The notes beneath the pieces were generated by a model that saw only the letters and a program-made list of their open reading frames with translations, was not told the DNA's origin and searched no databases. DNA of 20,000 nt from IMG/VR virus record IMGVR_UViG_3300009104_000011. One strand, given 5' to 3'. Of this stretch, positions 662-16,289 are shown piece by piece. The position numbers were made by a program, and so were the translations under genes. Position 1 is the stretch's first letter; each line of letters opens with the position of its first letter. The DNA is from an uncultured virus (IMG/VR IMGVR_UViG_3300009104_000011) (taxonomy: Duplodnaviria > Heunggongvirae > Uroviricota > Caudoviricetes).

Positions 662-1390
662 ATGTTTGAAGACGACGGACCTGTGACTAGATATAAGAAT
701 GATAGAATAGTTATTCCTATATGGGGATTCTTACTAATATTCTTCGGCCCAGCCGTAGTTACTGTTACCTATCTATATCACTATTCGACAATGGAATACA
801 CAGCATCTGCGATAATAGCATTGGCTGTAATGAATGGTTCGATAAACACAGTAATTGCGTGGCTAACTATTCGTCTTGACGGACATTCTAATGACGCACT
901 AGAACACCTTGATACGATTATGGTCGCAATGGAAGAACTAGACGAAACAATGATCGAAGCAAACGAGATGGTTGAGAGTTTCACAACGGATTTGGACAGT
1001 GCTAAAGCACTATTCGATAAGGTTGGCGTGGACTTAGGAGCATTAGATTTGGAGCCAGTTGCTGAGGTTGTCGAGAAGTTGAAAGACAACAAGGATGAAC
1101 TAAACGAGATCCTAAATCACATGAAAGAGGTCGATGTAAAGCACTATATTGACCAAGCAAAGAGGATTGATTGGCAGTCATTGTTAGATTCTGTTGAGGA
1201 AATAATGGGCTTTATTCAATCTAAATCTGGCCCGATTCAAGTACCAAAACCATCTGTCTCCAATGTTGTTTTACCGAATGTCGGTGGTTCGGTGTTTGAT
1301 GAAGAAGAGGATGGCGATTTCTTTTCTGACAGCCTACAACTATCTCCACCAACAAGGGGACTGAGCCTTACGCCACCAAAGCGGCCCTAA
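662..1390 (+). CDS. Membrane protein: two N-terminal TM helices, long acidic coiled coil, Pro-rich/acidic tail
   Basis: Hydrophobic segments IVIPIWGFLLIFFGPAVVTVTYLY and ASAIIALAVMNGSINTVIAWLTI. SD GGGGTGA at 647-653. Start is either ATG 662 or TTG 659. Confidence 0.75.
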   Translation: MFEDDGPVTRYKNDRIVIPIWGFLLIFFGPAVVTVTYLYHYSTMEYTASAIIALAVMNGSINTVIAWLTIRLDGHSNDALEHLDTIMVAMEELDETMIEANEMVESFTTDLDSAKALFDKVGVDLGALDLEPVAEVVEKLKDNKDELNEILNHMKEVDVKHYIDQAKRIDWQSLLDSVEEIMGFIQSKSGPIQVPKPSVSNVVLPNVGGSVFDEEEDGDFFSDSLQLSPPTRGLSLTPPKRP

Positions 1391-1824
1391 CTAAGTTCTT
1401 CTAGTTCCTTGAAACGAATTTTGGTGAAAGGTGCCTCGCCTTGAGCGCACTGAATCTTTTCTGCTGACACTTTCACAATTTGATTATCGTCCAAAAAGGC
1501 CACTCCGGAACAACCATCCTTGACTAATTTGATCAAGTTATCAAGATCTGGCTTTTTCACGCGCCAAATACGCGGGCGAGGGGTTCGCTTTCGCTCTTGG
1601 CTCTTTGGTAACTTTATACCAAACTGAATTTGCAGCATAATTGGACCACTCAGGATATCAATATCTTGTTCCTTCATTGCTTGAGAAACGAAAAACCTAA
1701 CAGACTGCTTTCCGTCTTTGCTTTTTTTGGGATCGTATGCACGAGGAAACCCACCATGAGAACTAAATCTTGGTCTCCCTTGAGCAACCGGCTCGCCGGG
1801 TATGACGACAGTAATCTCCTTCAT
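1387..1824 (-). CDS. rusA: RusA-family endodeoxyribonuclease (Holliday junction resolvase)
   Basis: Family motifs GEPVAQGRPR, KPDLDNLIKLVKDG and LDDNQIV; 145 aa. Confidence 0.92.
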   Translation of the reverse strand: MKEITVVIPGEPVAQGRPRFSSHGGFPRAYDPKKSKDGKQSVRFFVSQAMKEQDIDILSGPIMLQIQFGIKLPKSQERKRTPRPRIWRVKKPDLDNLIKLVKDGCSGVAFLDDNQIVKVSAEKIQCAQGEAPFTKIRFKELEELS

Positions 1825-1897: not shown

Positions 1898-2596
1898 ATG
1901 GAAGAGGGCCAAGTCCTTCACATAAAGTACAAAGACCACGTTCCTATTCAGAAGCGATTTGAGAGCATCGTTCGCATAATCGTAGACATGATTGAGGATG
2001 GGATGCGCGATCAAGTAGTTAGGCAAAAAGCAATATCTATTGTAAATGCTGCCGGAGTTCGTGGTCACGACGAAGTTGGTGAAATACGCGCTATCACAAA
2101 GTGGGTACAGACACACATGGTTTATCGCAAAGAACCTGTAGGTGTAGAATATTTTCACACAGCCCGAAGGCTACTACGTGATATTGATAATGGCTCTTCC
2201 GCAGGGGATTGTGACGACTTTGTTATTCTCGGTGGATCGCTACTTGGTTCACTAGGTTATCCAGTAGGCGCACTAATCGTAGACTCGTCAGGTGATGGAA
2301 CTTTCAATCACGTTATGTTAGTGACAAAAACTTTCACTGCAACAAGAGAGTTTGGAGATAATTGGATACCTGTCGAGTTAATCTATCCAGAATTTGAATT
2401 AGGACAAAGTGTACCGGTTTCAAAGGTCTATCCGCTAATGGCCGATGCAAAATCAATACGCTCACCTGTAACACATAAGACAATAAGTGGTTTAGGTAAC
2501 GTACAAGTTACTAATTCCTTGAAGCCCGGTGTTAGAAGTAATCGTTTTAGAGAAATGTTATCGAAACACCCTTTGGCAAAATTATTTAGAAGGTGA
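1898..2596 (+). CDS. Transglutaminase-like (papain-fold) cysteine enzyme; candidate virion maturation protease or cross-linker
   Basis: AITKWVQTHMVYRKEP, then GDCDD (Cys105, 2210-2212), NHV (His138, 2309-2311) and WIPVE (Glu160, 2375-2377, where Asp is usual). Confidence 0.85.
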   Translation: MEEGQVLHIKYKDHVPIQKRFESIVRIIVDMIEDGMRDQVVRQKAISIVNAAGVRGHDEVGEIRAITKWVQTHMVYRKEPVGVEYFHTARRLLRDIDNGSSAGDCDDFVILGGSLLGSLGYPVGALIVDSSGDGTFNHVMLVTKTFTATREFGDNWIPVELIYPEFELGQSVPVSKVYPLMADAKSIRSPVTHKTISGLGNVQVTNSLKPGVRSNRFREMLSKHPLAKLFRR

Positions 2597-2600
2597 TTAG

Positions 2601-2759
2601 ATGCAGATTCCTAAGAATGACTCAGCCTATCGACTATTACAGGCACCAACTTATTCTCGCGTGGGTTCCGTCTCTGTTTTAGATAGTGGATTTTGGGGAA
2701 CTCTCATAAGTATAGCCGCCGTCGGACTCTTGACGGTGACACTCTTTAACCGACTTTGA
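2601..2759 (+). CDS. Small 52-aa membrane protein (not in ORF track)
   Basis: MQIPKNDSAYRLLQAPTYSRVGSVSVLDSGFWGTLISIAAVGLLTVTLFNRL*. SD AGGTGA at 2591-2596; fills the gap between neighbours exactly; C-terminal TM helix. Confidence 0.8.
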   Translation: MQIPKNDSAYRLLQAPTYSRVGSVSVLDSGFWGTLISIAAVGLLTVTLFNRL

Positions 2760-2768
2760 ATGAGATGA

Positions 2769-3212
2769 TTGACAATGCCAGCAATGAATATATCGCTACA
2801 ACGCAGAATTGGAAGGCTACCTAAAAGCCCAGATTACTTGGACAATGTACCGCCTTCAATTTTTGAATACAACCACCGTGGATTCGGAATGAGAACGCCT
2901 ACACCAACTTACAAAGGATTCTTCGGAATCGGTAAGCACAAGCAGGGTCATGCGGGTAACGAAAATGGGGATGGTATGTTGAGTGCAATTTATGGAAACG
3001 ACGGAACTCGTTCTCTTCCAGCACCGGGAATCTACGGCATTGGTAGCGCTCCCGGCGAAGAAACAGTTATGCCTGCAGCGACAGAGTACAAGCCGACTCA
3101 TTGGAATACCCCTGGCCTCTTTGGAATTCAGGACACAATAACTCAGAACTGGAAGCCGCTTGCGGCAGTATTGGTAATAGGATACGTCGCTAAGCAGAAG
3201 AAGTGGATCTGA
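2769..3212 (+). CDS. Gly/Pro-rich protein with C-terminal membrane anchor and repeated G-hydrophobic-G motifs
   Basis: RGFG, GFFGIG, AIYG, PGIYGIG and PGLFGI repeats; C-terminus LAAVLVIGYVAKQKKWI. ATG 2775 is an alternative start. Confidence 0.75.
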   Translation: MTMPAMNISLQRRIGRLPKSPDYLDNVPPSIFEYNHRGFGMRTPTPTYKGFFGIGKHKQGHAGNENGDGMLSAIYGNDGTRSLPAPGIYGIGSAPGEETVMPAATEYKPTHWNTPGLFGIQDTITQNWKPLAAVLVIGYVAKQKKWI

Positions 3213-3224
3213 GTAGTTGATGGT

Positions 3225-4115
3225 ATGCCAAGAAAGCGATCTTTTCTAGGAGACAATAGGTACCTTGTAGGTGGCCTAGCCCTCGGAGGCTTGTATCTTC
3301 TCACAAAAGGCGGTAGCGCTCTAGGTCCTGCTGCCGAGGCAATCAGCAGAAGGGCTAATCCAGATGATGAATCAGCAGCCGCGGGTGTGACTCCCGGACT
3401 ATTTTATTACATCAGCGAAGCAACAGAGTGGAATGATTACCAAATCATGAAGCCAGCAATTTCGCCTGACACACCAGAAATCATAATTCCTTACACCCAA
3501 AATGATGCAGTAATTCATCTAATGGCTCGCGGTATGCCGGAAAACGTATCTCAGTCAGAAGCACGAAAGATAATTGCAAGAGGATATCCTAGTATAGTAC
3601 ATAGACTAGAGGGAATATACAATAGAAGTAATATGACTGTAGGAGATAGAAAGGAAGTATATGCTCACTTAACACCTCTATACAATGTAATGGGAACACC
3701 AAATGGACAGAGAGTCCCTGCTCCCGGAGCAACTGTTGCAACAACCACACCTACAGCAGAGTCTGTTCAAGGTATGGCAGTTAGAAGAAACGTTGCTGGA
3801 AACTACAGTCCCGGATCAAATCTAATGGGACACCAGACAACAAATCGTGCCGGAAATAGAAGACTGCGTGCAATTAGCGGAATGAAGTCATGGACTAAAG
3901 ATCACACACGTCAGGTCTACGACCAAAGAAGAAATATTTCTGCAACAAGAGAAATGACACTCAGAAATATGAAAGCGGGTATGGATATTGATCTTTACAA
4001 ACCCGTAGAAACACTTGAGATTTTCAGTGAAGCACCACAGCGCAACACGCATGAAGTAGACAATGTCGGTAACGCACTCGTTAAAACGAGGGACTCCATG
4101 CGAAGGATGCTGTGA
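3225..4115 (+). CDS. Hypothetical protein with N-terminal membrane anchor and Arg-rich C-terminal half
   Basis: YLVGGLALGGLYLLT hydrophobic segment; RRANP at 3348-3362; tightly packed in the operon. Confidence 0.75.
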   Translation: MPRKRSFLGDNRYLVGGLALGGLYLLTKGGSALGPAAEAISRRANPDDESAAAGVTPGLFYYISEATEWNDYQIMKPAISPDTPEIIIPYTQNDAVIHLMARGMPENVSQSEARKIIARGYPSIVHRLEGIYNRSNMTVGDRKEVYAHLTPLYNVMGTPNGQRVPAPGATVATTTPTAESVQGMAVRRNVAGNYSPGSNLMGHQTTNRAGNRRLRAISGMKSWTKDHTRQVYDQRRNISATREMTLRNMKAGMDIDLYKPVETLEIFSEAPQRNTHEVDNVGNALVKTRDSMRRML

Positions 4116-4119
4116 TTGA

Positions 4120-7100
4120 ATGACTTTGCAAAGAAGACGCCGCCGCAATGCGGATATCTTTGACACTGGGCCTTTTGGTGCATACAATAACTTTGGATTC
4201 ATTGATGATGGCGGTGACAGCGGCGGTGGCGGCGGCAGCGACGGTGGCGGTAGTTCAAACTCAGAACAAATCAGATACCATAGCACCTACTGGTATTATG
4301 TTTTACCAGTTTACTCCACTGGAAGTCGACCATCCATTCTTCATTATGCGTGGACCGTATATGATGATGTCAATGATGTAGGGACTACAGACCCGCTTGC
4401 TAGTGGAACAGGAGTCACCGATGAGATGGCAGATGCGGCAGCAAAGTCAGCAATTGATACATTAAAAATCGAAGCAGAAGCAGCCGCAGCCGCTGCGGAA
4501 GGCTATATTATTTACTTAACATGGGCGGACGTCTATTACCATCACATGATTATGGGACAACTTACAACAGAGCAAGCAAAAGATATCCTAGCAAATCAAT
4601 TTAATATTAGCGGTGAGGGGCTTGCGCGATACCCTGGACAGTGGGGCTCAGGTATGGCGTATTACGACGAATCAACTTTCTTAGAGCAGTTTGAGGTCCA
4701 TGATAGGCAAGAAGAAGGAGAAATAGAAGAGTATGCTCCACAGATACCAGTTATTGATTACGAAGCAGGATCGTACCTATTACCAAATGTAGGTAATGCT
4801 ACGATGGCGGATCAGCCCATACCAACAAACACCGCATACAAGTATTGGGACGGCAATCTAAAGTCACACAATTGGGCAGACCACGGTATGTCTACGCCCG
4901 AAATGGGCGATGTAAAAGACGGTGGAAGGTATCCTAAACCAATAGTGGATTCGTACGGTGGATATGCTGTTTCATTGAGTCATTATATTGCATCTTATGA
5001 CCCCAATGGGGCGTTTTTAGGATTCAGGGTGCTGACCGCGTCAGAACTTGAGGGAGGAATACCGGCAGGAATCCCCATTGCGACAGTTATGCAAATGTTC
5101 ACCAAGTGCGCCAAGTCTAGAAATGGGCACGATTTCAAAAACAATGGTAGAAACTTCATGTTGGATACCGAAAAGGAACCAGTATGGAGAAAGGCATTAG
5201 ATATGCCTATGCAGCCAAAAAGTTTCTTCCTTTGCGAAACAGCATTTGCAAGAGGACGACCGATACCAAAACCAACAGGCGGTCGTGACAATCAGGTGAT
5301 CATTGAAGGTACACACGGGTTCAATAATGATGATTTGACCATAGCCTATGATACAGGGTATAATGACGTAAAATCTGTATTCGGTAATCTTGGTAGAGAA
5401 GACACTCTTAACAGAGAAGTATACGAAAAGGCAGGCGATGAAGCCACAGCAGAAGCAGGATTTAGTGGATTGGGCTTCAAGATGACCTGGTCACCTCCGT
5501 CCAAGGCTTCTGGATGGCGCAGTAAAGTATACTATGCTGCAAAGGTTGAGTGGCTCGGAGAAAATGGACAGTTTGGTGCTTATTCGACGCACCCAGAAAG
5601 TATACCCGACTGTGACTCAGAACAAGGGAAAACCATGGTTATCTACAGATTTCCAAGACAATTAGACCCTGTAGTAGATAAAAATCTACTAGACTTTTAC
5701 GCAGCAAATGGAATGCCAAACTATGATATAACTCATACTGGAAAGTGTTATCCATTCCCCGAAGTTCATACAATGTCCTCTGGAGATGTTTCCTCATACA
5801 CAGATGCTCGTGACACCAAATATGGGTTAATTGGAAGACTAATGCCAACTAATTCAGATGCAATAGATGCAGAAAAATATGAAGCAGAATACAATGGAGA
5901 AGTATATGCTGGCCGTAGAGTAATTAGTTTCTTACCAATGATATCACCGAGTCTACCACCATCAAATAGACACCGACCGTACATCTTGAATGGAGAAGAT
6001 CTTTGGCCACTTTATTCGGCTTCTATGCATTACAAGAAAACTGATTGGTTTTGTTTTGACACGGGTTTAATTACTGGGGCTGCAATATCTATTACAGACC
6101 CATATAAGAAAGCGTATCTCGGTAGTGGCAGAGTAACCAACGCTTACTTCCCAAAGGCTAATTTAGACGTTGGAAGTACTGCTTTCGCAGTCGGCCAATG
6201 TATGCTTGCTTACGACATGGAAAGCCCGTCTGTTGATGCTAGGTTAGGAGAAAACTTTCCTACTGTCAATTTGCCTCACTCGTCTGAGAGAATAATAATT
6301 ACTACAGAACCTGGGAAAATGGATAGTGCTGGAATGCCTTTCAGATCCAAAGAACTAGACCCGATCGGAAGAGTAGACGATGGTTCTATGGCTGGAAGTT
6401 CCAAGTCAGATTATCTATCACCTATTCAAGTAATCACTACACAGGATTTAGTCAATATGGAGGCTACGCCACCAATGCCTGAGCCGGTAGGAATGGCTGC
6501 AATTAGAGATGCATGGAAAAATACAATGGGAACAGAACTTACAGCAGCGTCATTTGCGGCACTTCCAAATATAGGCGCATTCGACAATCCAACAAAATAC
6601 GGTGTTAGAGACCCCAACAATCCATTAAATTACATCATAAATACAAACTATGGTACGTTTAGTTTTCCCTTCACAATAGCCATATTCCAAGTACCTTTGC
6701 ACCATAGAGGACCAGTTCTAAAATATAGCGACGAAGTTGATACGAATGGTAATCTTAAACCACTTGAGTCAAGTTCGGAAAAACCAGGATATATCGGAAC
6801 AAAGGATGTAAGGCTGGTCTATCAAAGTCCTTTCGGAGAAGTAAACAGTTCCATAATCAATCTCGATAGAAAAATACAGAGACAACTAGACACAGTAGAA
6901 TTAGATGAACATGGTAATCCGATAGAGGGCGAAGTTAGCGACTTGTTTGAAGAACAAACTCAAGAAGGTGGCATCGATGAAGGACAGTATACAGAAGACG
7001 AGCAAGAAATATTCACCGAAAGGCAGTTCAAGAACTGGATGTATGATAAACTCATGGAAGACTATGGCGATGTTAAATGGACAAGCACACCATTTAAGCA

Positions 7101-7689
7101 ACACTTCCATCTTTGGAATAAAGACTACGTTACAGGTAAGATGCTGTTAGAAAAATTCGGAACTGACCCCGATTTCAAACTACCCGGAGTAGATTACTCA
7201 GTATACGAAGCAAGAGCCTCGGAGTTAGGAATTCAAATGGTTTCACAAGTTACAGACGACGAGGCTCAAGATGACCAAGCGGCAAACATGTTAGGTCTTG
7301 GAGCGTTCACAAATTCACAAGGATTTACCGTAACAGACGTTACTGCAAAGTGGGGAACAATGGAAGCCGCTAATGCAAGATACACCGGAGATGTCGGGAT
7401 GTCCATGGTGCCTTATGAGGCAAATGTCAAAAACGAGCAACTCGGATATATGGCAATGAGCAACCTCAGCGGGCTTGGATATCCGGGTGAAGGCGTCATA
7501 GATGACGCTAAAGGATTCGCAGCAGATGTCACAATGGAAGCCGCAAAATGGTCTGGACTTGGAGTGGGACTTGGGCTTGGTGGAGCAGTTATGATTCTGG
7601 CTGGTGGTGTAGCAGTTGGTATAGCAGCAAAAGAAAGTGGAAAAGCCGTGTGGACAATACTTAACAAGAAGAGTCCAAACTCGATTTAA
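4120..7689 (+). CDS. Large (1189 aa) acidic protein with Gly-rich C-terminal TM anchor; possible spike/adhesin-like virion protein
   Basis: Long ORF with N-terminal RRRRR and a poly-Gly linker, an aromatic/Gly/Pro-rich core, and C-terminal GLGVGLGLGGAVMILAGGVAVGIAA. Function is inferred only. Confidence 0.8.
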   Translation: MTLQRRRRRNADIFDTGPFGAYNNFGFIDDGGDSGGGGGSDGGGSSNSEQIRYHSTYWYYVLPVYSTGSRPSILHYAWTVYDDVNDVGTTDPLASGTGVTDEMADAAAKSAIDTLKIEAEAAAAAAEGYIIYLTWADVYYHHMIMGQLTTEQAKDILANQFNISGEGLARYPGQWGSGMAYYDESTFLEQFEVHDRQEEGEIEEYAPQIPVIDYEAGSYLLPNVGNATMADQPIPTNTAYKYWDGNLKSHNWADHGMSTPEMGDVKDGGRYPKPIVDSYGGYAVSLSHYIASYDPNGAFLGFRVLTASELEGGIPAGIPIATVMQMFTKCAKSRNGHDFKNNGRNFMLDTEKEPVWRKALDMPMQPKSFFLCETAFARGRPIPKPTGGRDNQVIIEGTHGFNNDDLTIAYDTGYNDVKSVFGNLGREDTLNREVYEKAGDEATAEAGFSGLGFKMTWSPPSKASGWRSKVYYAAKVEWLGENGQFGAYSTHPESIPDCDSEQGKTMVIYRFPRQLDPVVDKNLLDFYAANGMPNYDITHTGKCYPFPEVHTMSSGDVSSYTDARDTKYGLIGRLMPTNSDAIDAEKYEAEYNGEVYAGRRVISFLPMISPSLPPSNRHRPYILNGEDLWPLYSASMHYKKTDWFCFDTGLITGAAISITDPYKKAYLGSGRVTNAYFPKANLDVGSTAFAVGQCMLAYDMESPSVDARLGENFPTVNLPHSSERIIITTEPGKMDSAGMPFRSKELDPIGRVDDGSMAGSSKSDYLSPIQVITTQDLVNMEATPPMPEPVGMAAIRDAWKNTMGTELTAASFAALPNIGAFDNPTKYGVRDPNNPLNYIINTNYGTFSFPFTIAIFQVPLHHRGPVLKYSDEVDTNGNLKPLESSSEKPGYIGTKDVRLVYQSPFGEVNSSIINLDRKIQRQLDTVELDEHGNPIEGEVSDLFEEQTQEGGIDEGQYTEDEQEIFTERQFKNWMYDKLMEDYGDVKWTSTPFKQHFHLWNKDYVTGKMLLEKFGTDPDFKLPGVDYSVYEARASELGIQMVSQVTDDEAQDDQAANMLGLGAFTNSQGFTVTDVTAKWGTMEAANARYTGDVGMSMVPYEANVKNEQLGYMAMSNLSGLGYPGEGVIDDAKGFAADVTMEAAKWSGLGVGLGLGGAVMILAGGVAVGIAAKESGKAVWTILNKKSPNSI
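4209..4251 (+). repeat. GGC/GGT low-complexity tract encoding a Gly/Ser linker (GGDSGGGGGSDGGG)
   Basis: Directly visible in the sequence. Confidence 0.7.
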
Positions 7690-7698
7690 GCAACACCC

Positions 7699-7728
7699 TC
7701 TTAACAACCCACCTAGTGCGCATAACTG
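7699..7728 (+). promoter_or_regulatory. Candidate archaeal TATA-type promoter, leaderless
   Basis: TTAAC at 7701-7705, 28 nt upstream of ATG 7729; no SD. 7701-7726 matches 14578-14603 at 17 of 26 positions. Confidence 0.5.
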
Positions 7729-9000
7729 ATGGCAGTCAGTCCTGACTTTGCAAATCGTTTGGTTTTTGAGTTCAAAGAGAAATCAGCCGAAATTATTGAT
7801 AGGTATAATCTGAGTCATCTTAGAGGAACAGAAAAGATGGATCCAGCCACAAAATTGGCTGCAGAGTTCATTAATCTTGCAAATCAAAGCACAACCAATC
7901 CAAGTGTGACAGAATCAATGCTCGCATCTGAGCAGAGAATGTATCTTAAGACACTTGAGCAAAAAGTCTTAGGAATTACCAAGAACCAAGCCAAGAGTCT
8001 AGATGGACTGCACGCACAGGCATTTGGGACTACTGTAGTTAGTGACGCAAATTGGGACAGGACTGTTTCATCCGTTGCAAAAGAAGTAGACCGAATTGCT
8101 GTCAAGAATAGCAGTTTGATTAACGCATTGACTAAGGAAGAGCAAAAGTACATGGATAACATGTTTGCAACTGTTGTAGAAACCGTCCGAGTAAAGCACG
8201 AAAGAGATCCTTCTGCGCAGAGTTCTATGGATGCAGAAAAGGCAGCATCTCAAGATCTTAGGACTGTGGAAAAGCAGTTAGAAAAGATGGCAACTGACTC
8301 GATTAAGAGAAGACAACACGAGATATACAGTGATTTTGATGAGCAGTTGAATAGGTATTTGCAATCGTTTAACGAGATGCGAAAAGCAATGAAGCCCGTG
8401 GAAGTTAAGAAAGCCAACAATCAAGTTGGTTTGATAAAGAAAATGATGCGAGAACTAAAGACAAATAAGCGACTAATGAGAGATCGAAATCTGCTACAGT
8501 CGCATATTGCAGCAATTCAAAATCAATTCAAAGTGCTAAACGAGATGGAAGGAGACATGTCAGAGACTGTATCCGCAGTTGCTGGTATATTCGGTTCAAC
8601 TGCCAGGCCAAGTAACAGAAGACACTTTTCTTTTGATGGATTTGGTGCAATGATAACCGCTGCGGAGATTGAAAGCAATCACCCAGAAACAAAGAATCCA
8701 GCGCACATTCGTTCTATGCAGTATTTCATGAATCAAGGTCTCACTTTTGACCAAGCACATGAAGCCTCAAAAGCCTATGGTTATGAGATGAATGATGGTG
8801 TGAGAAGCATGGACCTTGATTATAGAGTTAATTATTTGGGTCAAGCCACAGACTATACAGAAGACTCTCATACACTTAGAGAGTCTTCTTTTGGTAGAAA
8901 ACTGTTAAACGTGGGTGCGGGGACAGTAGGTGGAGGGATACTGTTGCTCGGAGGGGGTTTACTCGTTTTAATAGGTATATCAAGGGTGGGAAGTAAATGA
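7729..9000 (+). CDS. Coiled-coil protein with C-terminal Gly-rich TM anchor
   Basis: Helical K/E/Q-rich body; FDGFG motif; C-terminal VGAGTVGGGILLLGGGLLVLIGI; ATGA overlap with the next gene. Confidence 0.8.
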   Translation: MAVSPDFANRLVFEFKEKSAEIIDRYNLSHLRGTEKMDPATKLAAEFINLANQSTTNPSVTESMLASEQRMYLKTLEQKVLGITKNQAKSLDGLHAQAFGTTVVSDANWDRTVSSVAKEVDRIAVKNSSLINALTKEEQKYMDNMFATVVETVRVKHERDPSAQSSMDAEKAASQDLRTVEKQLEKMATDSIKRRQHEIYSDFDEQLNRYLQSFNEMRKAMKPVEVKKANNQVGLIKKMMRELKTNKRLMRDRNLLQSHIAAIQNQFKVLNEMEGDMSETVSAVAGIFGSTARPSNRRHFSFDGFGAMITAAEIESNHPETKNPAHIRSMQYFMNQGLTFDQAHEASKAYGYEMNDGVRSMDLDYRVNYLGQATDYTEDSHTLRESSFGRKLLNVGAGTVGGGILLLGGGLLVLIGISRVGSK

Positions 9001-11072
9001 ATTTCATCAGAACTAATGGAGAAGTCGTTCAAGTGAATGACAAGGACGTCAATACCCTTGAGAAGAACAAAGATTACACGCTCTACGGAGCAAGACACAA
9101 CCCAAGTGGTGAACAAATGGTATCAGTAGTTTACAATAACGACGCAGCGGCAGAGTATGCCGACAATGATGTGGGAGATTCGATAGCAGATCATCCCGAA
9201 GACCGAAGCATAAGAGGCAATCCAGGTAAGAAATTAACTTGGAGAAATCTGAGACTGCAATCAGCAATAGATGGTGAAGCAACTGTAAAGGGACGAGTAG
9301 GTACGGCAGTTGGTGCGCCTGAGAAACTACTACGATTTGCAGGGAGTGCAATCCTGTCTGGGGTAATAGCAAGCGATCAATCACTAAGAGACGACCCAAT
9401 GTTGGTTATTTCTACAGCAAAAGATTGGTACGCATACATCCAAAAAATGAATACCGTAGACATTGGTGCAGAATTTGCTGCCGGTGTTTCACACGCACAA
9501 CGTGCCTCTAACGCAATGTTCGCTCACGAGTGGGAGAACGATCCAGGCCACCACAATCTCTCAGGAAGACTTCTTCCGGGAGCAGATATTCAAGATGCAA
9601 TTGCAAAGGGACAAATTGCTTACGATGTATTAACTCGCGGCAGAGACATTCTCGCTCAACAGGGATACGGTGCAAACCAACAGGAAGTAATGCACAAGTT
9701 AGTTTTCGATATACTGCGCTCACTTCCAATCAGAACTTACAACTTTTACACACTCTTTAGACTCCATCCCGACGAAGGAAACGCAATCTACTCTGAGTTC
9801 CAGAGCCGATACATTCCTCTTGATACCGCTGAGGTAGAAATGGTTCTTGAGATGCAAAGAGCATTGGACTTGGAAGGAGACGCTTATGCTTTCCGAACAA
9901 CTGCTAATGAACAACAAGGAGTTCTTTCGGCAAGGCTCATGAGATCTGCTGTAGCAGATTATGCCGCAGGTGACACAGTATCAGTTAGAACAATCTTGAT
10001 GACACTGCAGGCACCACCTTACAATTACAGAGCAAGAGGCGTACAAATTGCTGCTGCTGGTGGTGACGCTAGTGCAGCCACCGGTCATGAAACAATCTAC
10101 ATGGAGTTCAAACTTGCTAACAACGAAATGGTAGAAACGGCTAGTCAGAACGTACAAGGAATCAAGAAACTGTCCAAGGACAAGATAGGTGGTTGGGCAA
10201 TTGGAGTTCAAGAACACCACATGGATGATAAAAACCAACTCCAAATCGCTAAAGACTACAAGGATAAGTACAAAACAGTACCTATCGCTCACAGTCAATA
10301 TGATCCAACCCCTGCCTACTTGGCAGTTAGATTCAAATCTACTGGAAAGAAGAAGAAAGGCAAAGGTGGAGACTCTTGGACACTTGTAAACTACGAGGAA
10401 GACTACTTGAGAGTAGGCAACCAGTCCGAAGCAGGTCGTTCTGCAAGAAACATTAGACAAGGTCTAGGTAGCGGTGGCGGCAGGCAAAGTTACGATAGAA
10501 GGCAGCGTGGCGGCCACCGAAGTGACTCAGACTGGGGTAAAGGCTCGCGCGATAGAGGTCGCAGAAATCCCAAAAAGAAAGCAAAGTCAAAGGGTGCAGG
10601 TAGAGGAAATTATCTCTTCGTAGAAATACACGATAAACGCCAAATTGACATGAAGCGACGAGAACCTGCAAAGGGAAAGCAAAAGGGAGAAACTCGACAC
10701 GGAACTGGTAAATCCAAGAAGGGACAGGGTTATTGGAGCCGTGGAGTAAGCAAACATTTACCTGCTGGACAAATGCTACAGATGGGTACTTTGAAGAAAA
10801 CCGGCGAAGAAGCACCGTTCCGAATAAGATTCCCTAGGTCACATTTTGCGACAGTTGCTCATCAATCATTGAAGCCAGGGCAAAAGACGCTGATTCCAAA
10901 GAAGAATAAGGCCAATAAAGAATTCGTAGAGGCGTATCAAGACTTCGTGGACTACTATGGGATGCCTGTTATGACTTCTTCAAGAGACACACAACCCCGC
11001 TTTGTTGTCCCGAAGGAAGCAAGACTCTCTTCGCCGTACTACCAAGAAGTACGAAAACAAATCGGCCAGTGA
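8997..11072 (+). CDS. Hypothetical 691-aa protein with strongly basic K/R/G-rich C-terminal third; candidate DNA-condensing core protein
   Basis: TGKKKKGKGG and RDRGRRNPKKKAKSKG tracts; RHNP, RGNP and RRNP motifs. Confidence 0.8.
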   Translation: MNFIRTNGEVVQVNDKDVNTLEKNKDYTLYGARHNPSGEQMVSVVYNNDAAAEYADNDVGDSIADHPEDRSIRGNPGKKLTWRNLRLQSAIDGEATVKGRVGTAVGAPEKLLRFAGSAILSGVIASDQSLRDDPMLVISTAKDWYAYIQKMNTVDIGAEFAAGVSHAQRASNAMFAHEWENDPGHHNLSGRLLPGADIQDAIAKGQIAYDVLTRGRDILAQQGYGANQQEVMHKLVFDILRSLPIRTYNFYTLFRLHPDEGNAIYSEFQSRYIPLDTAEVEMVLEMQRALDLEGDAYAFRTTANEQQGVLSARLMRSAVADYAAGDTVSVRTILMTLQAPPYNYRARGVQIAAAGGDASAATGHETIYMEFKLANNEMVETASQNVQGIKKLSKDKIGGWAIGVQEHHMDDKNQLQIAKDYKDKYKTVPIAHSQYDPTPAYLAVRFKSTGKKKKGKGGDSWTLVNYEEDYLRVGNQSEAGRSARNIRQGLGSGGGRQSYDRRQRGGHRSDSDWGKGSRDRGRRNPKKKAKSKGAGRGNYLFVEIHDKRQIDMKRREPAKGKQKGETRHGTGKSKKGQGYWSRGVSKHLPAGQMLQMGTLKKTGEEAPFRIRFPRSHFATVAHQSLKPGQKTLIPKKNKANKEFVEAYQDFVDYYGMPVMTSSRDTQPRFVVPKEARLSSPYYQEVRKQIGQ

Positions 11073-13546
11073 TTAGGATGAGAGTAAAGGTACCCAGAGA
11101 TCTTGCGGGAGGTTCTCTCCTTAATGCACATAGGTGGGTAAAGTCCACTATTGCAAGACAAAATCCAGGTGGTTCAACGTCTGATTACAAGATACAGGAA
11201 ACTAATGGAACACCAATTAGTTTGAGTGATTTGACTAGCAGAAACTTTGACGAAGTCTTAGTGATATCCGGAACAAGAAGTAACCCACCTGAACGCGGCG
11301 CACTTGCAGACAGAGCCGCAGAGCGCGGATTTATTGACGCAGACACTTCTAACTACCCAGTGGCTTCACCAGATTGGAGATACCCCAGTTATAGTGACAA
11401 TAATAGGATAGGTAATAACATAGCAAAACTACTACCTAAGGATATAGATGCTTCTATGCTAAATAGACTAGCAGCACAGAACGGTATGTTCAGCGCATTG
11501 AATACAACCACGAAGTTACTTTACACCGATGAAGGACATTTCTCAGATTCCGCAACCGACCCACAAGTCGCAGCACTATTGCAAACGTATGCTAACGCAC
11601 AGCAGAAACTACAACATCCGATTCTTTCCAACCCAGCGAGGACGTTCTTTGGTCCTGATATGAATGATGGATACAGGGGAGTTCTCTCGCCTGATGAAGC
11701 AGTCAAGGTATGGGCAGCAGATAAGTTCAAACTCGATAGCACCAGATTAGGACCAGTCCAATCCACACAATTAATGGATCGGGCCAGAATAATTAGAATG
11801 TACGATTTAGATAATTCAGAGAACCTTAACAATTTCATAGATCATGTTCTGACTCCGTATCTAGTAACGTCCATTGCAAACGCAAACTTGCTAAAGGCCA
11901 TGAGACACGGAGACTATCATCAAACCACAAAGGAGGCCCTAGGTAGATTCAAGGGAGATATGGAAGATACCCCACAGTGGAAGAAATTACTCGCAATGCT
12001 ACCAATGCACGCAAAGGACTTCTACGATGGAAAAGACTACGCTCTTATTGCTCACCCTGTCTTCCAAAGACGAAGCCTAGCAATTCAAGCAATGGATAAG
12101 AGACTCATCAAGCGAATAATGAAGATAGTCAAAGACCATCCAGATAACGCAAACGAAGCACTATCTCCAGGTGAAATCCGTCCCGGTTATAGATCTGCAG
12201 GAGTCGTAGGACTGATAGAGAGTCTTATGGTTCCAGAGAGAAGGGAGATAAACAACCTATTGATTGCTCAACAGCAGATACTGACAACAACAGATCCATC
12301 GGCGCATTTAGAACTTCTAAGAGAACTATACTTGGGTGACAGTAGAGATGAATCTATTGCTAACTCAGTTCGCGACATGGTTATTGGTGACAAAGTAAGT
12401 TACCAAAGAGATGTTGCAGGTTTCCGACCCACGCCTCCACCATACTGGCCTAAACCGGTTGTTCTTGCGGTAATGGATGCATTGAAGGAAAACATCCACG
12501 CTTTCATCGAACAAACAGATAGATTTGGAGTAGCCTTTAGACAACTAGCCAGTATACCTCATATGCCAGTGAATAGAGATCAGAGGATTACTTTCACTCT
12601 TGGAAATGAACAAGCCTCGATGTCACTAGACAGTCTAATCAATCTAAGGAATATTCTGGCACCTCTTTCACCCTCTGTGCTGATGGCTAGCGGTGGTGCG
12701 CAGGGAGTAGATAATCCGACTACTGGAAGGCTGGGTGCCGCGGTTGTAGTTGAAGAGCCAGGTAGACGCGAAATGGAATTTAGGTCGATAGGTATGTCAC
12801 CAAGACAGTCGAGTCCCCTATTCGGAGGGGGCGTATCTGATGATGAGAGAATACTACATTGGAACGATGTGCGTTTCATCATAGCGGCGTTCACTAAGAA
12901 CAGAAATTATTTCCGTGACGGGCTTATGCAGAAAGACGCAGCGGAGATACGGACACTCTTTGAACACATGATTCACAAGTATAGTCGGACAGAGTTTAAC
13001 GAACTTGCAGATGAGACACTTAACCTGCTTTCGATATTTATGGAAGTAGAGGAAACTGCCAGACACAAGTACAATTACGCTATGACCGAAAATGACAGAG
13101 CATTTGTGCTGTATCTTCTGAATAGACTTTTTGACACGATTCAAGTTCAACCCGAATGGGGAGACGGAAGTGGAGACGGCGGTCCGGGCGGAAGGTCTGA
13201 TGATGAAATAGTGAATATTTTGATGCACATGCAAGGACCAGATCAAGCAGTAAGTAATGATCAGATGAACCGTAGACTTCAATTTAATAGAAGGGTTACT
13301 GCGATATCTAACAGGCTTATTCGGGATTATGAAGCAGGCGGTATGGTTCCTCGCCCAACAGAAGTCAATAACATATTTGATGAATTACAACGTGATGTGG
13401 AACTAAGTGCATGGGGACGTAATTTAGTAGCGCACGAAAGAGCGAGAGTATTGAGAGAGATACAATATGATTATGCCCCTAATCAAGCAGTTGAAAGACA
13501 CCGCATGTATGCTGATATTGACGCTATTGGGCGTGATGATAGATGA
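11069..13546 (+). CDS. Hypothetical ~825-aa mainly helical protein
   Basis: Long ORF; GTG 11069 overlaps the upstream stop, and ATG 11078 is a likely alternative start. Contains RQNP, RSNP and LSNP motifs. Confidence 0.8.
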   Translation: MIRMRVKVPRDLAGGSLLNAHRWVKSTIARQNPGGSTSDYKIQETNGTPISLSDLTSRNFDEVLVISGTRSNPPERGALADRAAERGFIDADTSNYPVASPDWRYPSYSDNNRIGNNIAKLLPKDIDASMLNRLAAQNGMFSALNTTTKLLYTDEGHFSDSATDPQVAALLQTYANAQQKLQHPILSNPARTFFGPDMNDGYRGVLSPDEAVKVWAADKFKLDSTRLGPVQSTQLMDRARIIRMYDLDNSENLNNFIDHVLTPYLVTSIANANLLKAMRHGDYHQTTKEALGRFKGDMEDTPQWKKLLAMLPMHAKDFYDGKDYALIAHPVFQRRSLAIQAMDKRLIKRIMKIVKDHPDNANEALSPGEIRPGYRSAGVVGLIESLMVPERREINNLLIAQQQILTTTDPSAHLELLRELYLGDSRDESIANSVRDMVIGDKVSYQRDVAGFRPTPPPYWPKPVVLAVMDALKENIHAFIEQTDRFGVAFRQLASIPHMPVNRDQRITFTLGNEQASMSLDSLINLRNILAPLSPSVLMASGGAQGVDNPTTGRLGAAVVVEEPGRREMEFRSIGMSPRQSSPLFGGGVSDDERILHWNDVRFIIAAFTKNRNYFRDGLMQKDAAEIRTLFEHMIHKYSRTEFNELADETLNLLSIFMEVEETARHKYNYAMTENDRAFVLYLLNRLFDTIQVQPEWGDGSGDGGPGGRSDDEIVNILMHMQGPDQAVSNDQMNRRLQFNRRVTAISNRLIRDYEAGGMVPRPTEVNNIFDELQRDVELSAWGRNLVAHERARVLREIQYDYAPNQAVERHRMYADIDAIGRDDR

Positions 13547-14565
13547 CCATTAGCGACCAAGTAAATGAGATGGTGCAGGAACTCAGAGCGTGGAACGAAT
13601 CAGACAATCCTAAATTTCTTGGTGACCAACTTTATGACCCCCTTGGTTGGGAGGAATTGAGAGAAAGACAACTCGATATCAAAGTGGTAAATAAGGGAAT
13701 TTCAGACATTGCACCACACCTTGATGCTCAGGCATCATTTGTTCTAACTTCGCTAGACCAAGGCCTTGACAGTGTTAGAGTCGATATTCGCAGATTGTAC
13801 GCTGGTTTCCAAGAATTCGCAAAAGGAGAGGACCGTCCAATCAAGAATCTAAACACAATGACTGACTCTCAAAGAAAGACAAAAATGGCACGGTTAAGAG
13901 AAGATTATTTGTTTTTCTTTGCAGATGTTGCACAGAATTCAACGTCCTTATACACCAGTAAAGGATTGATACAGAACGCTATTGAGACATTACGAATGCA
14001 GAGTAAACTTGCTAACTCTGTAAATGCTCTAGGTGGCAAAATGGAGAACTCTGTAACCTATACTCAACTGGCTGATCGACTACAAGCACTCTATGATAAT
14101 GTGTCCAATCTCGGTATGGCTTTGCAAAAGTTACAAATGACAATTAAGAAAGTTAAAGATCCGCCAAGACAAAGGTATCCAAAAATGGATACGAAGCAGG
14201 GCGATAATCAGTTTGTGGATAAATTATACTATGATGTTTTGACTGAGTGGTTAAGAGTTCTCGCTCACTGTCACAAAGTCGAGAATTCAGTGCGTACAAT
14301 GAGTGCGCAGTTTGTAAAAGTAAAAGGACTGAAAGGAATGTCTAAAGATCGACATGGAATGGATACTCTGCCAGAAATTTTGGATAAATACAAGGCAATC
14401 AATAATGAGGCGAAAGCAACGTTCCCTAACTATCGACCAATGTTATTTGAGTCAAAAGTAAAGTTTGCCGAAGCAATGGACCATGCGACCAAAAGAAAAA
14501 GTAAGCGTCGGGCTCTTGTGAAAGCAAATCAGGAACTATTGTCGCGATTAGAAGAGATCTTCTAA
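13543..14565 (+). CDS. Hypothetical 340-aa helical/coiled-coil protein
   Basis: ATGA overlap with the upstream gene; heptad-like pattern; basic C-terminus. Confidence 0.8.
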   Translation: MTISDQVNEMVQELRAWNESDNPKFLGDQLYDPLGWEELRERQLDIKVVNKGISDIAPHLDAQASFVLTSLDQGLDSVRVDIRRLYAGFQEFAKGEDRPIKNLNTMTDSQRKTKMARLREDYLFFFADVAQNSTSLYTSKGLIQNAIETLRMQSKLANSVNALGGKMENSVTYTQLADRLQALYDNVSNLGMALQKLQMTIKKVKDPPRQRYPKMDTKQGDNQFVDKLYYDVLTEWLRVLAHCHKVENSVRTMSAQFVKVKGLKGMSKDRHGMDTLPEILDKYKAINNEAKATFPNYRPMLFESKVKFAEAMDHATKRKSKRRALVKANQELLSRLEEIF

Positions 14566-14574
14566 ACCAGTAGC

Positions 14575-14603
14575 CGTATAAACACCTACCCCTTGCGAAT
14601 AGC
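14575..14603 (+). promoter_or_regulatory. Candidate archaeal TATA box, leaderless transcript
   Basis: TATAAAC at 14577-14583, 27 nt upstream of GTG 14604. Confidence 0.55.
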
Positions 14604-16289
14604 GTGAGCAGCGCAGCATTTTGTGGTGATTGTGGAACTAGAGCCAATCCTAGTAGAGTCACGTGTTTTCAATGTGGTAGCAAATTGCCACATACTCATG
14701 TAAGAGAAAACCCGGCTTTATATGCAAAACTATCTAGAGAATTACCTCCTGCAGCAGTTTTCGATCTCGATATGACAATCTTTGATAACTCGCAGCGATT
14801 TAAGGATGCGCGGCGGGCAGGTTTGGTCGATAAAGAAGGAAAGGCTGTATCAAAAGGCATGATGAGTAAAGGCCAAGCATGGAGAAAGCGAAACAATTTC
14901 CTTTACAGTAAGAAGAATCTACGAAAGGACACAGTAATCCCTGGAGCAAAAGAACTAGTAAATGAACTAGCAAATGAAGGATATACTATAGTGTATCTAA
15001 CTGCTAGACCTAAAGAACACTATGAGGCTACTATAGAGCAACTAGAATATTTTGGATTCCCTCTCTTTAGAGACAACAAGGGAGAAACTCTTCTGATAAC
15101 GAAAGAGCAAAGGAATACCCAAGTTGGTGCATACAAAGGTAATGCGCTAAGAGAACTATCTGGAAATTACAAAGTGGAAATGTTCTTCGATGATGACCAT
15201 AGAGCACTAGAAGAAGCACTCAAATTGAAAATCCCCGGTGTGTATAGCACAGTAGACCAAAGAACAAACCCCGGTGCGGGTGACGTCCACATTGCAGAAG
15301 AAGACATTGAAAAAGCATATAGAATGATGCCAGATCCTGATGATGAAGATGATCGAACTGTTGGGGAGACGATGAATCCATCAGATACTGACGAATATCG
15401 TGAGGCAGCAGGTGCAATAGTGATGAACGAAGACAAAGTTTTGCTACTACGTAGGTCTGTAAAGGAAACCTCCCGACACGGTATGTGGGAACTTCCCGGA
15501 GGAAAACTTGAGGAAGGAGAGACTCCCGAAGATGCTGCTATTACTGAAACAAAGGAAGAAAGTGGTCTAGATGTTGTACTCGATAAAAAAGTCGGTGAAC
15601 ACGTTGATCACAATATGAACAAAGTCTATCACGCTTATATTGCAGAACCCACAAGTGTAGATCAAGAAGTTAAATTATCAGAAGAACATGACGAAAGCCA
15701 ATGGATGACTATTGAGGAAGCACTTGCTTTAGAGGAAGGAAAACTAAGCCATCATGCAAAGTTCTTCTTTGCAAAAATGAAGGTTCTTTCCAACCCAGCA
15801 AAGCGTGGTAAAGATTCCAAGGGACCTTACTACCGTTGGGGTGGTGGAAAGAAATACCATTACAAGGCTGGCAATAAGAAGTCAAGAGAAGCGGCAAGAA
15901 AGAAGGCTTACGGCCAAGCAAGAGCCGCATTTGCTGGTGGCTACAAAAAGAATCCAGCAAGTCCTAAGAAGGTAAAGAAAGCAGAGAAACTTTACAAGCA
16001 CATGAATGGCCAAGAACCAGAGAAGGTAAAAGTTGAGAATATAGATATTGGCAATGTCTGGTACAAGGTCGGAGAAGGTGGGTGTTGGCAGATTGGTTAT
16101 ATGTCTGGCAAAGAAACTGGTAAAGAAGAGCAGAAATATGTTCATACATTCAATGAGGAAACAAAAGATGGCAATTTCCCAGAACTCTATGCAACTATGC
16201 CCGACAAAGGTAAGCCTATGTTGATCATCAAAGGTGGTACTTGGAAGATTAAAACTGACGACAAGGGCGTTGCTTGGATATACGATTAG
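14604..16289 (+). CDS. Multidomain protein: Zn ribbon + HAD-superfamily phosphatase + Nudix hydrolase + basic module + C-terminal domain
   Basis: CGDC...CFQC zinc ribbon. HAD motifs DLDMT (14763), YLTAR, YK and FFDDD (15183). Nudix box GGKLEEGETPEDAAITETKEESGL (15498-15569). Confidence 0.88.
   Translation: MSSAAFCGDCGTRANPSRVTCFQCGSKLPHTHVRENPALYAKLSRELPPAAVFDLDMTIFDNSQRFKDARRAGLVDKEGKAVSKGMMSKGQAWRKRNNFLYSKKNLRKDTVIPGAKELVNELANEGYTIVYLTARPKEHYEATIEQLEYFGFPLFRDNKGETLLITKEQRNTQVGAYKGNALRELSGNYKVEMFFDDDHRALEEALKLKIPGVYSTVDQRTNPGAGDVHIAEEDIEKAYRMMPDPDDEDDRTVGETMNPSDTDEYREAAGAIVMNEDKVLLLRRSVKETSRHGMWELPGGKLEEGETPEDAAITETKEESGLDVVLDKKVGEHVDHNMNKVYHAYIAEPTSVDQEVKLSEEHDESQWMTIEEALALEEGKLSHHAKFFFAKMKVLSNPAKRGKDSKGPYYRWGGGKKYHYKAGNKKSREAARKKAYGQARAAFAGGYKKNPASPKKVKKAEKLYKHMNGQEPEKVKVENIDIGNVWYKVGEGGCWQIGYMSGKETGKEEQKYVHTFNEETKDGNFPELYATMPDKGKPMLIIKGGTWKIKTDDKGVAWIYD

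Follow-up and report, generated by a model that had tools for sequence, protein, structure and literature searches.

A glycine-centred peptide tag and a transglutaminase-fold enzyme in the putative particle-building module of marine archaeal viruses

The adenovirus protease adenain (AVP; Peptidase_C5) is a virion cysteine enzyme that reads a short Gly-centred consensus on unrelated structural precursors, (M/I/L)xGx|G or (M/I/L)xGG|x, with a hydrophobic residue two places before the Gly; its catalytic residues are His54, Glu71 and Cys122, and it tolerates departures from the consensus (PMC4246237). A short motif is likewise carried by many head proteins in the systems of T4 gp21, with its capsid-targeting sequences, and phiKZ gp175; 10-residue leaders both target the protein and are cut, and the protease trims its own C-terminus (PMC9026906). 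In bacteria, LapG frees a large surface adhesin from its anchor by cutting it at a short site of small residues (PMC3032545). The cultured phage SSIP-1 is classed in reviews as tailless, membrane-containing and PRD1-like, with two capsid proteins (PMC6356626, PMC5332951). Here, we analyze a 20,000-nucleotide stretch of an uncultured virus (IMG/VR IMGVR_UViG_3300009104_000011; hereafter, the window), in which recurrent hydrophobic-x-G-[LFI]-G motifs accompany a gene for a cysteine enzyme of the transglutaminase fold, and compare this locus with the systems above.

The motifs and the enzyme in the window

A first-pass annotation of the window had described eight such motifs as a second address or cleavage code, matching the adenain consensus and concentrated in membrane-anchored proteins. 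All eight are in frame on the forward strand: ISGLG at 2483, FFGIG at 2919, IYGIG at 3030, FSGLG at 5461, MLGLG at 7288, LSGLG at 7465, WSGLG at 7549 and FDGFG at 8632. They are spread over four of the 16 long open reading frames (ORFs 1898-2596, 2775-3212, 4120-7689 and 7729-9000; gene calls from our own scripts) and are the only matches to [ILMFWVY]-x-G-[LFI]-G, the strict pattern, in 6,585 amino acids (aa). The enrichment statistics proposed in that annotation show an excess over chance: eight matches compare with 1.9 expected from per-protein shuffling (P = 0.0008) and with 2.45 from 20-aa local shuffling (P = 0.0046). Because the strict pattern was defined on this same window, the real test lies in loci outside it. 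The four sites that had been named as fitting (M/I/L)xGx|G do fit, but across the window the adenain consensus itself shows no enrichment (8 versus 6.15, P = 0.27). A second motif, RxNP, occurs 10 times versus 0.95 expected across all 16 ORFs.

Orthologues below 90% identity, in which we counted the core hydrophobic-x-G-hydrophobic, retain it at 2483 (31/31), 2919 (41/41), 3030 (39/41), 7288 (33/36), 7465 (34/36) and 8632 (15/18), so that the non-conservation that would count against the code is confined to 5461 (0/36) and, in the form of variability, 7549 (27/36); some relatedness persists among representatives even when they are chosen below 70% or 90% identity. This retention is far above the background of ~0.01 in most proteins and 0.15 in the 145-aa protein described below. 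The near-invariant residue is the first Gly, and the last Gly, required by adenain in this register, is often replaced by Lys, Ala, Ser, Asp or Glu; the conserved core of the tag is hydrophobic-x-Gly-hydrophobic, mostly followed by Gly.

The annotation had overlooked that the first motif lies in the tail of a putative maturation protease, a 232-aa cysteine enzyme of the transglutaminase fold (1898..2596, + strand). In Pfam, this ORF matches BTLCP at E = 0.027 and Transglut_core at E = 0.058, in each case below the cut-off, and with 14.7 bits versus a gathering score of 27 the protein lies outside the BTLCP/LapG family (PF06035). The AlphaFold2 model is confident for residues 1-187 (mean pLDDT 84), and a structure search (VIA) with it yielded a Z score of 13.7 to 3KD4 (139 aligned, root-mean-square deviation 2.8), followed by factor XIII (4KTY; 11.6), 3ISR (10.8), PeiP (10.2) and LapG (9.8); no adenain or Ulp1 chains were among the 50 structure matches listed. 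In its core fold, the model belongs to the transglutaminase-like superfamily. The candidate catalytic residues, located by alignment, are Cys105 (nucleotide (nt) 2210), His138 (nt 2309) and Glu160 (nt 2375), a Cys-His-acid order unlike the His-Glu-Cys order of adenain. Among the best 150 of 1,702 homologues, the aligned position holds Cys in 145/145, His in 135/136 and Asp or Glu in 132/133, and, in the same sample, G[LFIM]G follows directly past the domain in 41 of the 78 homologues with a tail, versus 8.7 expected. In the window, this motif is ISGLG (2483..2497), which sits in a low-confidence linker (residues 188-211) and marks the end of the enzyme homology, conservation being 0.50 before and 0.14 after it; the core is invariant (31/31), with the final Gly in 32% of its column. 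A search for metagenomic relatives of this ORF gave 321 matches, of which 80 were kept. In one homologue (P0003), an insertion directly before the catalytic Cys reads as intein-like.

The remaining sites lie downstream. The 145-aa protein (2775..3212, + strand; alignment A6) consists of repeated aromatic/hydrophobic-Gly units, is weakly hydrophobic near its C-terminus (KD 0.95) and carries five tag copies within ~90 residues, among them FFGIG (2919..2933; Phe first in 41/41, strict in 35/41), IYGIG (3030..3044; strict in 34/41) and a degenerate site absent from the first-pass list, LFGIQ (3117..3131; core in 29/40). Another degenerate site, ISGMK (3873..3887; core in 17/18), is found in a 296-aa protein (3225-4115). 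The 1189-aa protein (4120..7689, + strand; 40 homologues including itself) ends in a membrane helix at ~nt 7570-7626 (KD 2.09). Its MLGLG (7288..7302; strict in 29/39, Gly column 100%) follows an acidic linker ~95 aa before the helix, at a point where conservation rises from 0.37 to 0.77, and its LSGLG (7465..7479; core in 39/39, strict in 18/39, final Gly not kept) lies ~35 aa before the helix. In the same protein, FSGLG (5461..5475; strict in 0/39 and 0/34) falls in a poorly aligned insertion and is probably a chance match, and WSGLG (7549..7563; column conservation 0.28-0.85, strict in 4/26 distant orthologues), at the start of the Gly-rich helix, is probably better explained by helix composition. 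The 423-aa protein (7729..9000, + strand), with a C-terminal helix at ~nt 8923-8979 (KD 2.17), carries FDGFG (8632..8646; Gly in 18/18, strict in 8/18) ~97 aa before that helix and the degenerate sites LDGLH (7999; core in 12/18) and VAGIF (8578; core in 14/18). The earlier statement that the motifs lie upstream of C-terminal transmembrane helices therefore stands for three sites (7288, 7465 and 8632); 2919 and 3030 fit it loosely. It fails for 2483, whose protein has no transmembrane segment, for 5461, which is separated from the helix by ~700 aa, and for 7549, which lies inside the helix.

The two motifs in related loci and in SSIP-1

Outside the window, we collected 80 of at least 120 IMG/VR loci found by a DNA pattern of the catalytic motif, along with 11 others; 54 of these 91 loci carry the enzyme, and the other 37, read on the + strand only, served as controls. 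The set includes duplicates (L002 = L182, and L132 close to L153) and four loci of the window's own clade. The tag occurs 290 times versus 105 expected in the enzyme loci (15/54 singly at p < 0.01) and 47 times versus 47.9 in the controls (0/37); for [RK]xNP, the counts are 223 versus 61 (24/54 singly significant) and 41 versus 28.6 (1/37), respectively. In the long IMG/VR relative G003, the excess is confined to the structural module (tag 16 versus 8.0, RxNP 29 versus 5.2), with counts outside it of 3 versus 4.4 and 5 versus 4.8. Period-3 repeats are mildly enriched (49 versus 36).

Placement was assessed with 236 representatives of 483 proteins from the window's clade and 1,350 of 1,413 proteins from distant viruses, the latter set excluding six dropped loci. 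Clade proteins with a C-terminal helix contain 78 tags versus 15.1 expected and 12 RxNP versus 7.9, and those without a detected helix contain 46 versus 11.0 (4.2-fold) and 54 versus 11.6; in the distant viruses, the corresponding counts are 133 versus 32.3 and 15 versus 12.1 with a helix, and 69 versus 40.8 and 123 versus 30.6 without. RxNP thus shows no enrichment in anchored proteins, whereas the Gly tag also marks proteins outside that class; the segregation of the two motifs proposed at first is genuine but incomplete. The concentration of tags near C-terminal helices, beside a second RxNP code, extends to the whole clade, with 47 tags 1-100 aa before such a helix versus 3.6 expected. In addition, 41 tags fall in the first 15 residues versus 10.2 expected (25 records), often as near-identical short leaders shared within one genome, and some begin at residues 1-3.

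The two motifs vary independently over the 25 records: G002, G036 and G007 are tag-rich with no clear excess of RxNP (1 versus 1.7, 12 versus 6.8 and 13 versus 9.1, respectively), and G013 and G028 show the opposite pattern, RxNP without a tag excess. In our reading, RxNP is a separate code. A very basic core-like protein with Arg/Lys/Thr repeats (L006:12506-13543 and the G003 termini) combines both codes, with NP close to its beginning and Gly tags towards its end. Proteins in which NP links numerous short modules and which share a terminal domain (L242:10753-12030 in G011, and protein family 4) occur in 14 of the 25 records.

Among 50,697 phage records, the enzyme matches only gp34 of SSIP-1, present in two records (tblastn E = 0.02, or 4e-6 with a second query; E = 4.6e-36 in a hidden Markov model search among 57 proteins), a protein labelled 'structural protein' in GenBank. 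Besides this homologue, which has G-M-G in the linker past the domain, SSIP-1 shares with the window a similar gene order, small neighbouring proteins with G-[LMF]-G, and RENP in gp41 and gp43. The SSIP-1 module contains 17 G[LFIM]G versus 8.9 expected (P = 0.009), 21 NP versus 12.5 (P = 0.019) and 4 [RK]xNP versus 1.4 (P = 0.038), and none of these excesses is seen in its genes outside the module. Unlike the window's relatives, SSIP-1 has a genome of 44 kb, a bacterial host and a weaker tag, and its capsid proteins show no detectable sequence match to the capsid candidate of the clade.

Possible functions of the tag

The reading that we favor, at roughly even odds, is that the tag both addresses proteins and is cut, its reader being a packaged enzyme of the transglutaminase fold. 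Under this reading, the window would be part of a particle-building module of a marine archaeal virus, and the tag, hydrophobic-x-Gly-hydrophobic and then, in most cases, Gly plus a small or acidic residue, would serve as a shared recognition mark on membrane, core and accessory proteins. The enzyme, whose packaging we infer from SSIP-1 gp34, would cut at the tags during maturation, trimming short N-terminal leaders, freeing domains from their membrane anchors and removing its own tail. The tag might then be both an address to the particle and a cut site, as are the capsid-targeting leaders of T4, which the short shared leaders described above resemble (PMC9026906). The comparisons show the tag with its conservation and placement, the fold and triad of the enzyme, and the occurrence of tag and enzyme together; proteolysis itself, the scissile bond and the side of the membrane on which domains would be released are all putative.

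By analogy, such a system would work like adenovirus and T4 maturation, yet it appears to stand outside the adenain system. Cleavage by adenain is established and that of the window tag is putative; the window enzyme differs from adenain in its fold and catalytic order, and its sites differ in that Phe, Val or Trp are common at the first position and the final Gly is dispensable, all in viruses of a prokaryotic host. T4 gp21 and phiKZ gp175 differ in being serine proteases of tailed HK97-fold phages that cut after Glu (L/I-X-E), without membrane-anchored substrates of the window's kind. LapG resembles the window enzyme in its fold and its Cys-His-Asp triad but is cellular, acts on a single adhesin at an Ala-Ala site and is controlled by LapD.

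Several observations weigh against the favored reading. Because the enzyme served to select the loci, its presence in all of them follows from the selection; just two new records were reached through the capsid candidate, both with the enzyme. The tag is significant singly in just the 15 loci noted above, the strict tag is not enriched in SSIP-1 (4 versus 2.3, P = 0.19), and complete genomes with the enzyme but without a tag excess exist: G013 (6 versus 8.1), G047 (4 versus 3.7) and G011 (4 versus 3.4). The closely spaced copies in the 145-aa protein equally suit multivalent docking, the transglutaminase fold also covers cross-linking enzymes and acyltransferases, and the jelly-roll capsid fold of the clade is putative. 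A predicted complex between residues 40-100 of the 145-aa protein and the enzyme domain (score 0.01, mark 0.32) counts neither way.

The tag might instead be an address only, which binds to a scaffold or to the capsid protein, ties membrane-anchored and core proteins to the shell and stays uncut, with the enzyme acting on another target. We consider this, the main rival reading, possible, although on balance unlikely. Multiple copies in low-complexity proteins and tags within 100 aa of membrane helices suit docking, as does the finding that in HCIV-1 and HHIV-2 the assembly of capsomers is directed by membrane-proximal proteins with a C-terminal helix (PMC6414509), and tags starting at residues 1-3 leave little to remove. 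The fall in conservation past the enzyme's tag and its rise past 7288 suit a processing boundary, and an enzyme with an intact active site is retained beside the tagged genes, yet both features are compatible with docking.

Alternatively, the enzyme could be a transpeptidase or cross-linker that joins soluble RxNP proteins to Gly-tagged anchors, with the two codes as donor and acceptor. Factor XIII and transglutaminases rank second to fourth in the fold search, both codes occur with the enzyme, and they are enriched in different protein classes; the independence of the codes, with G002, G036 and G007 tag-rich only and G013 and G028 the reverse, makes such a reaction improbable. Matrixins cut Gly|Leu-type bonds, and a zinc metalloprotease cutting such bonds at the tag is a slightly weaker candidate still: a zinc-protease-like, membrane-anchored gene (HExxHxxGxxH) lies next to the packaging-type ATPase and is conserved in G001 and G003 (38% identity), but the motif was found in only 6 of 50 records and 3 of 26 complete viruses, is missing from the complete tag-rich G036, G024, G019 and G014, and a scan of SSIP-1 revealed no such enzyme. 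A protease of this kind could still act in the window's clade alone.

The reader first proposed, an adenain/Ulp1-type (clan CE) protease encoded elsewhere in the genome and cutting (M/I/L)xGx|G, now seems very improbable. Beyond the four fitting sites and the tolerance of adenain for departures (PMC4246237), the consensus is mildly elevated in the G003 module (34 versus 23, P = 0.016) and in the enzyme loci (485 versus 346), in both cases overlapping the tag itself. The residues that adenain needs are often lost, however: compatible orthologues number 17/31 at 2483, 7/41 at 2919, 18/41 at 3030 and 4/18 at 8632, and 23/39 and 18/39 (the latter at 7465) among homologues of the 1189-aa protein, and the Phe that opens site 2919 in all 41 orthologues is not of the adenain type. 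The search for such a protease, which the annotation had called for, was run on the relatives and found none: Peptidase_C5 (PF00770) matched 0 of 48 records, 26 of them near-complete, in a scan in which no positive control scored either, and PF02902 (C48; its positive control scored) and PF03290 (C57) each matched neither G001 nor G003. A loose clan-CE pattern picked out three proteins, in G002, G017 and G035, and had no hit in G001 and G003. When 25 records were clustered all against all, no second shared protease-like family emerged at the BLAST level. Finally, a mere by-product of Gly-rich composition, which holds for 5461 and probably for 7549, is hardly credible for the other six sites given the local shuffles, the control loci, the module-versus-rest contrast and the retention in orthologues.

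Relatives, neighboring genes and implications

The relatives G001 (110 kb, 79%) and G003 (140 kb, complete), long IMG/VR records with a gene order similar to that of the window, stand in for its genome; the relatives' genome size is 110-140 kb. G003 encodes a family B polymerase, MCM, PriS and an A'-type subunit of RNA polymerase, together with a thermosome above the NCBIfam cut-off; the host is therefore archaeal and might belong to Poseidoniales. GGTGA-type ribosome-binding sites precede the genes, and the best-matching sequencing runs for the window are marine, with no RNA runs among the listed holders. One relative lies inside an archaeal metagenome-assembled genome (MAG) and another inside a Flavobacteriales MAG; the latter contig of the archaeal virus clade (L107, G050) is possibly mis-binned. 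The RNA polymerase subunit is a single-chain A'/A''-type largest subunit (G003 38529-43523, equal to L097:14529-19523; G001 33377-38212); the clade also encodes the thermosome, and G003 adds MCM and a SWIB-domain protein. The clade did not turn up in the literature searched; a paper on Poseidoniales viruses (PMC11706807) has no mention of 'transglut', 'tailless' or 'RNA polymerase', nor does the main text of Yutin 2018 (PMC5894146) contain 'protease' or 'transglut'.

Alongside a HerA-domain ATPase, the same module encodes the basic core-like protein and, as the capsid candidate, a conserved protein of 204 aa. Among the 95 G003 proteins scanned (~151 genes called), none matched a Pfam family for portal, capsid or tail proteins; there is one weak PHROG match, to a baseplate connector, and the best PHROG label of the ATPase in G001 and G003 is terminase large subunit. 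For the capsid candidate, the single-sequence fold reached a pLDDT of only 29, no PDB sequence matched, a comparison of its alignment (A4) with A5 gave a probability of 1.5%, and Atlas offered a lead for one distant candidate only (P2_N/P2_C/P3_C at 0.76-0.77). Gene content and the link to SSIP-1 suggest that this large virus is probably tailless, with an internal membrane. In G003 (137941-139711, equal to L105:17605-19375) and G001 (L006:13836-15608), the zinc-protease-like protein and the HerA-domain ATPase form a conserved trio with a 194-aa protein without a Pfam family, which we take from its resemblance to be possibly a hydrolase. A search with P0132 as query returned no match.

In the window, a RusA-like Holliday junction resolvase (1387..1824, - strand; Pfam E = 2e-27) is a syntenic marker of the module start, found at the same place in L001. 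A Gln/Pro-rich helical protein at 3-647 is cut by the window edge, and a scaffold-like gene resembling it precedes the enzyme in L001, L002 and SSIP-1 (gp33). Downstream of the enzyme lies a 52-aa membrane-anchored protein (2601..2759, + strand), in whose orthologues short [SGN]-[LMI]-G-[ASD] repeats occur; in L082, L087, L088 and L089, the orthologue forms a single chain with the enzyme. The large soluble proteins at 8997..16289 (+ strand) bear [RK]xNP at 9093, 9213, 10560, 11156, 11276, 14640, 14703, 15261 and 15945. The last of them (14604-16289) combines a zinc ribbon, a HAD phosphatase, a Nudix domain and a further module in one polyprotein-like chain with NP in the linkers, five of its six NP lying outside Pfam domains; RANP at 14640 sits within the zinc ribbon and may not be part of the code.

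More tentatively, tailless viruses that contain a membrane, a wide group infecting archaea as well as bacteria and including SSIP-1, may share maturation by a cysteine enzyme of the transglutaminase fold and the sorting of their proteins through two peptide codes: the Gly tag for core proteins and those anchored in the membrane, and RxNP between modules of soluble polyproteins. One enzyme could perhaps cut both or join the two classes. No paper describing motif-guided maturation by such an enzyme was found in the literature searched, which lacked most subscription journals. This window contributes the archaeal branch, a control-tested split into two codes and a cultured test system, SSIP-1, which makes the idea testable by a single proteomics experiment. 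The tag flags virion proteins among hundreds of unannotated genes, and the enzyme marks an abundant group of marine archaeal viruses with their own RNA polymerase subunit and thermosome. If the tag is indeed cut, tailless viruses of prokaryotes would have a motif-guided maturation like that of adenoviruses and T4, carried out by a protease of a different fold.

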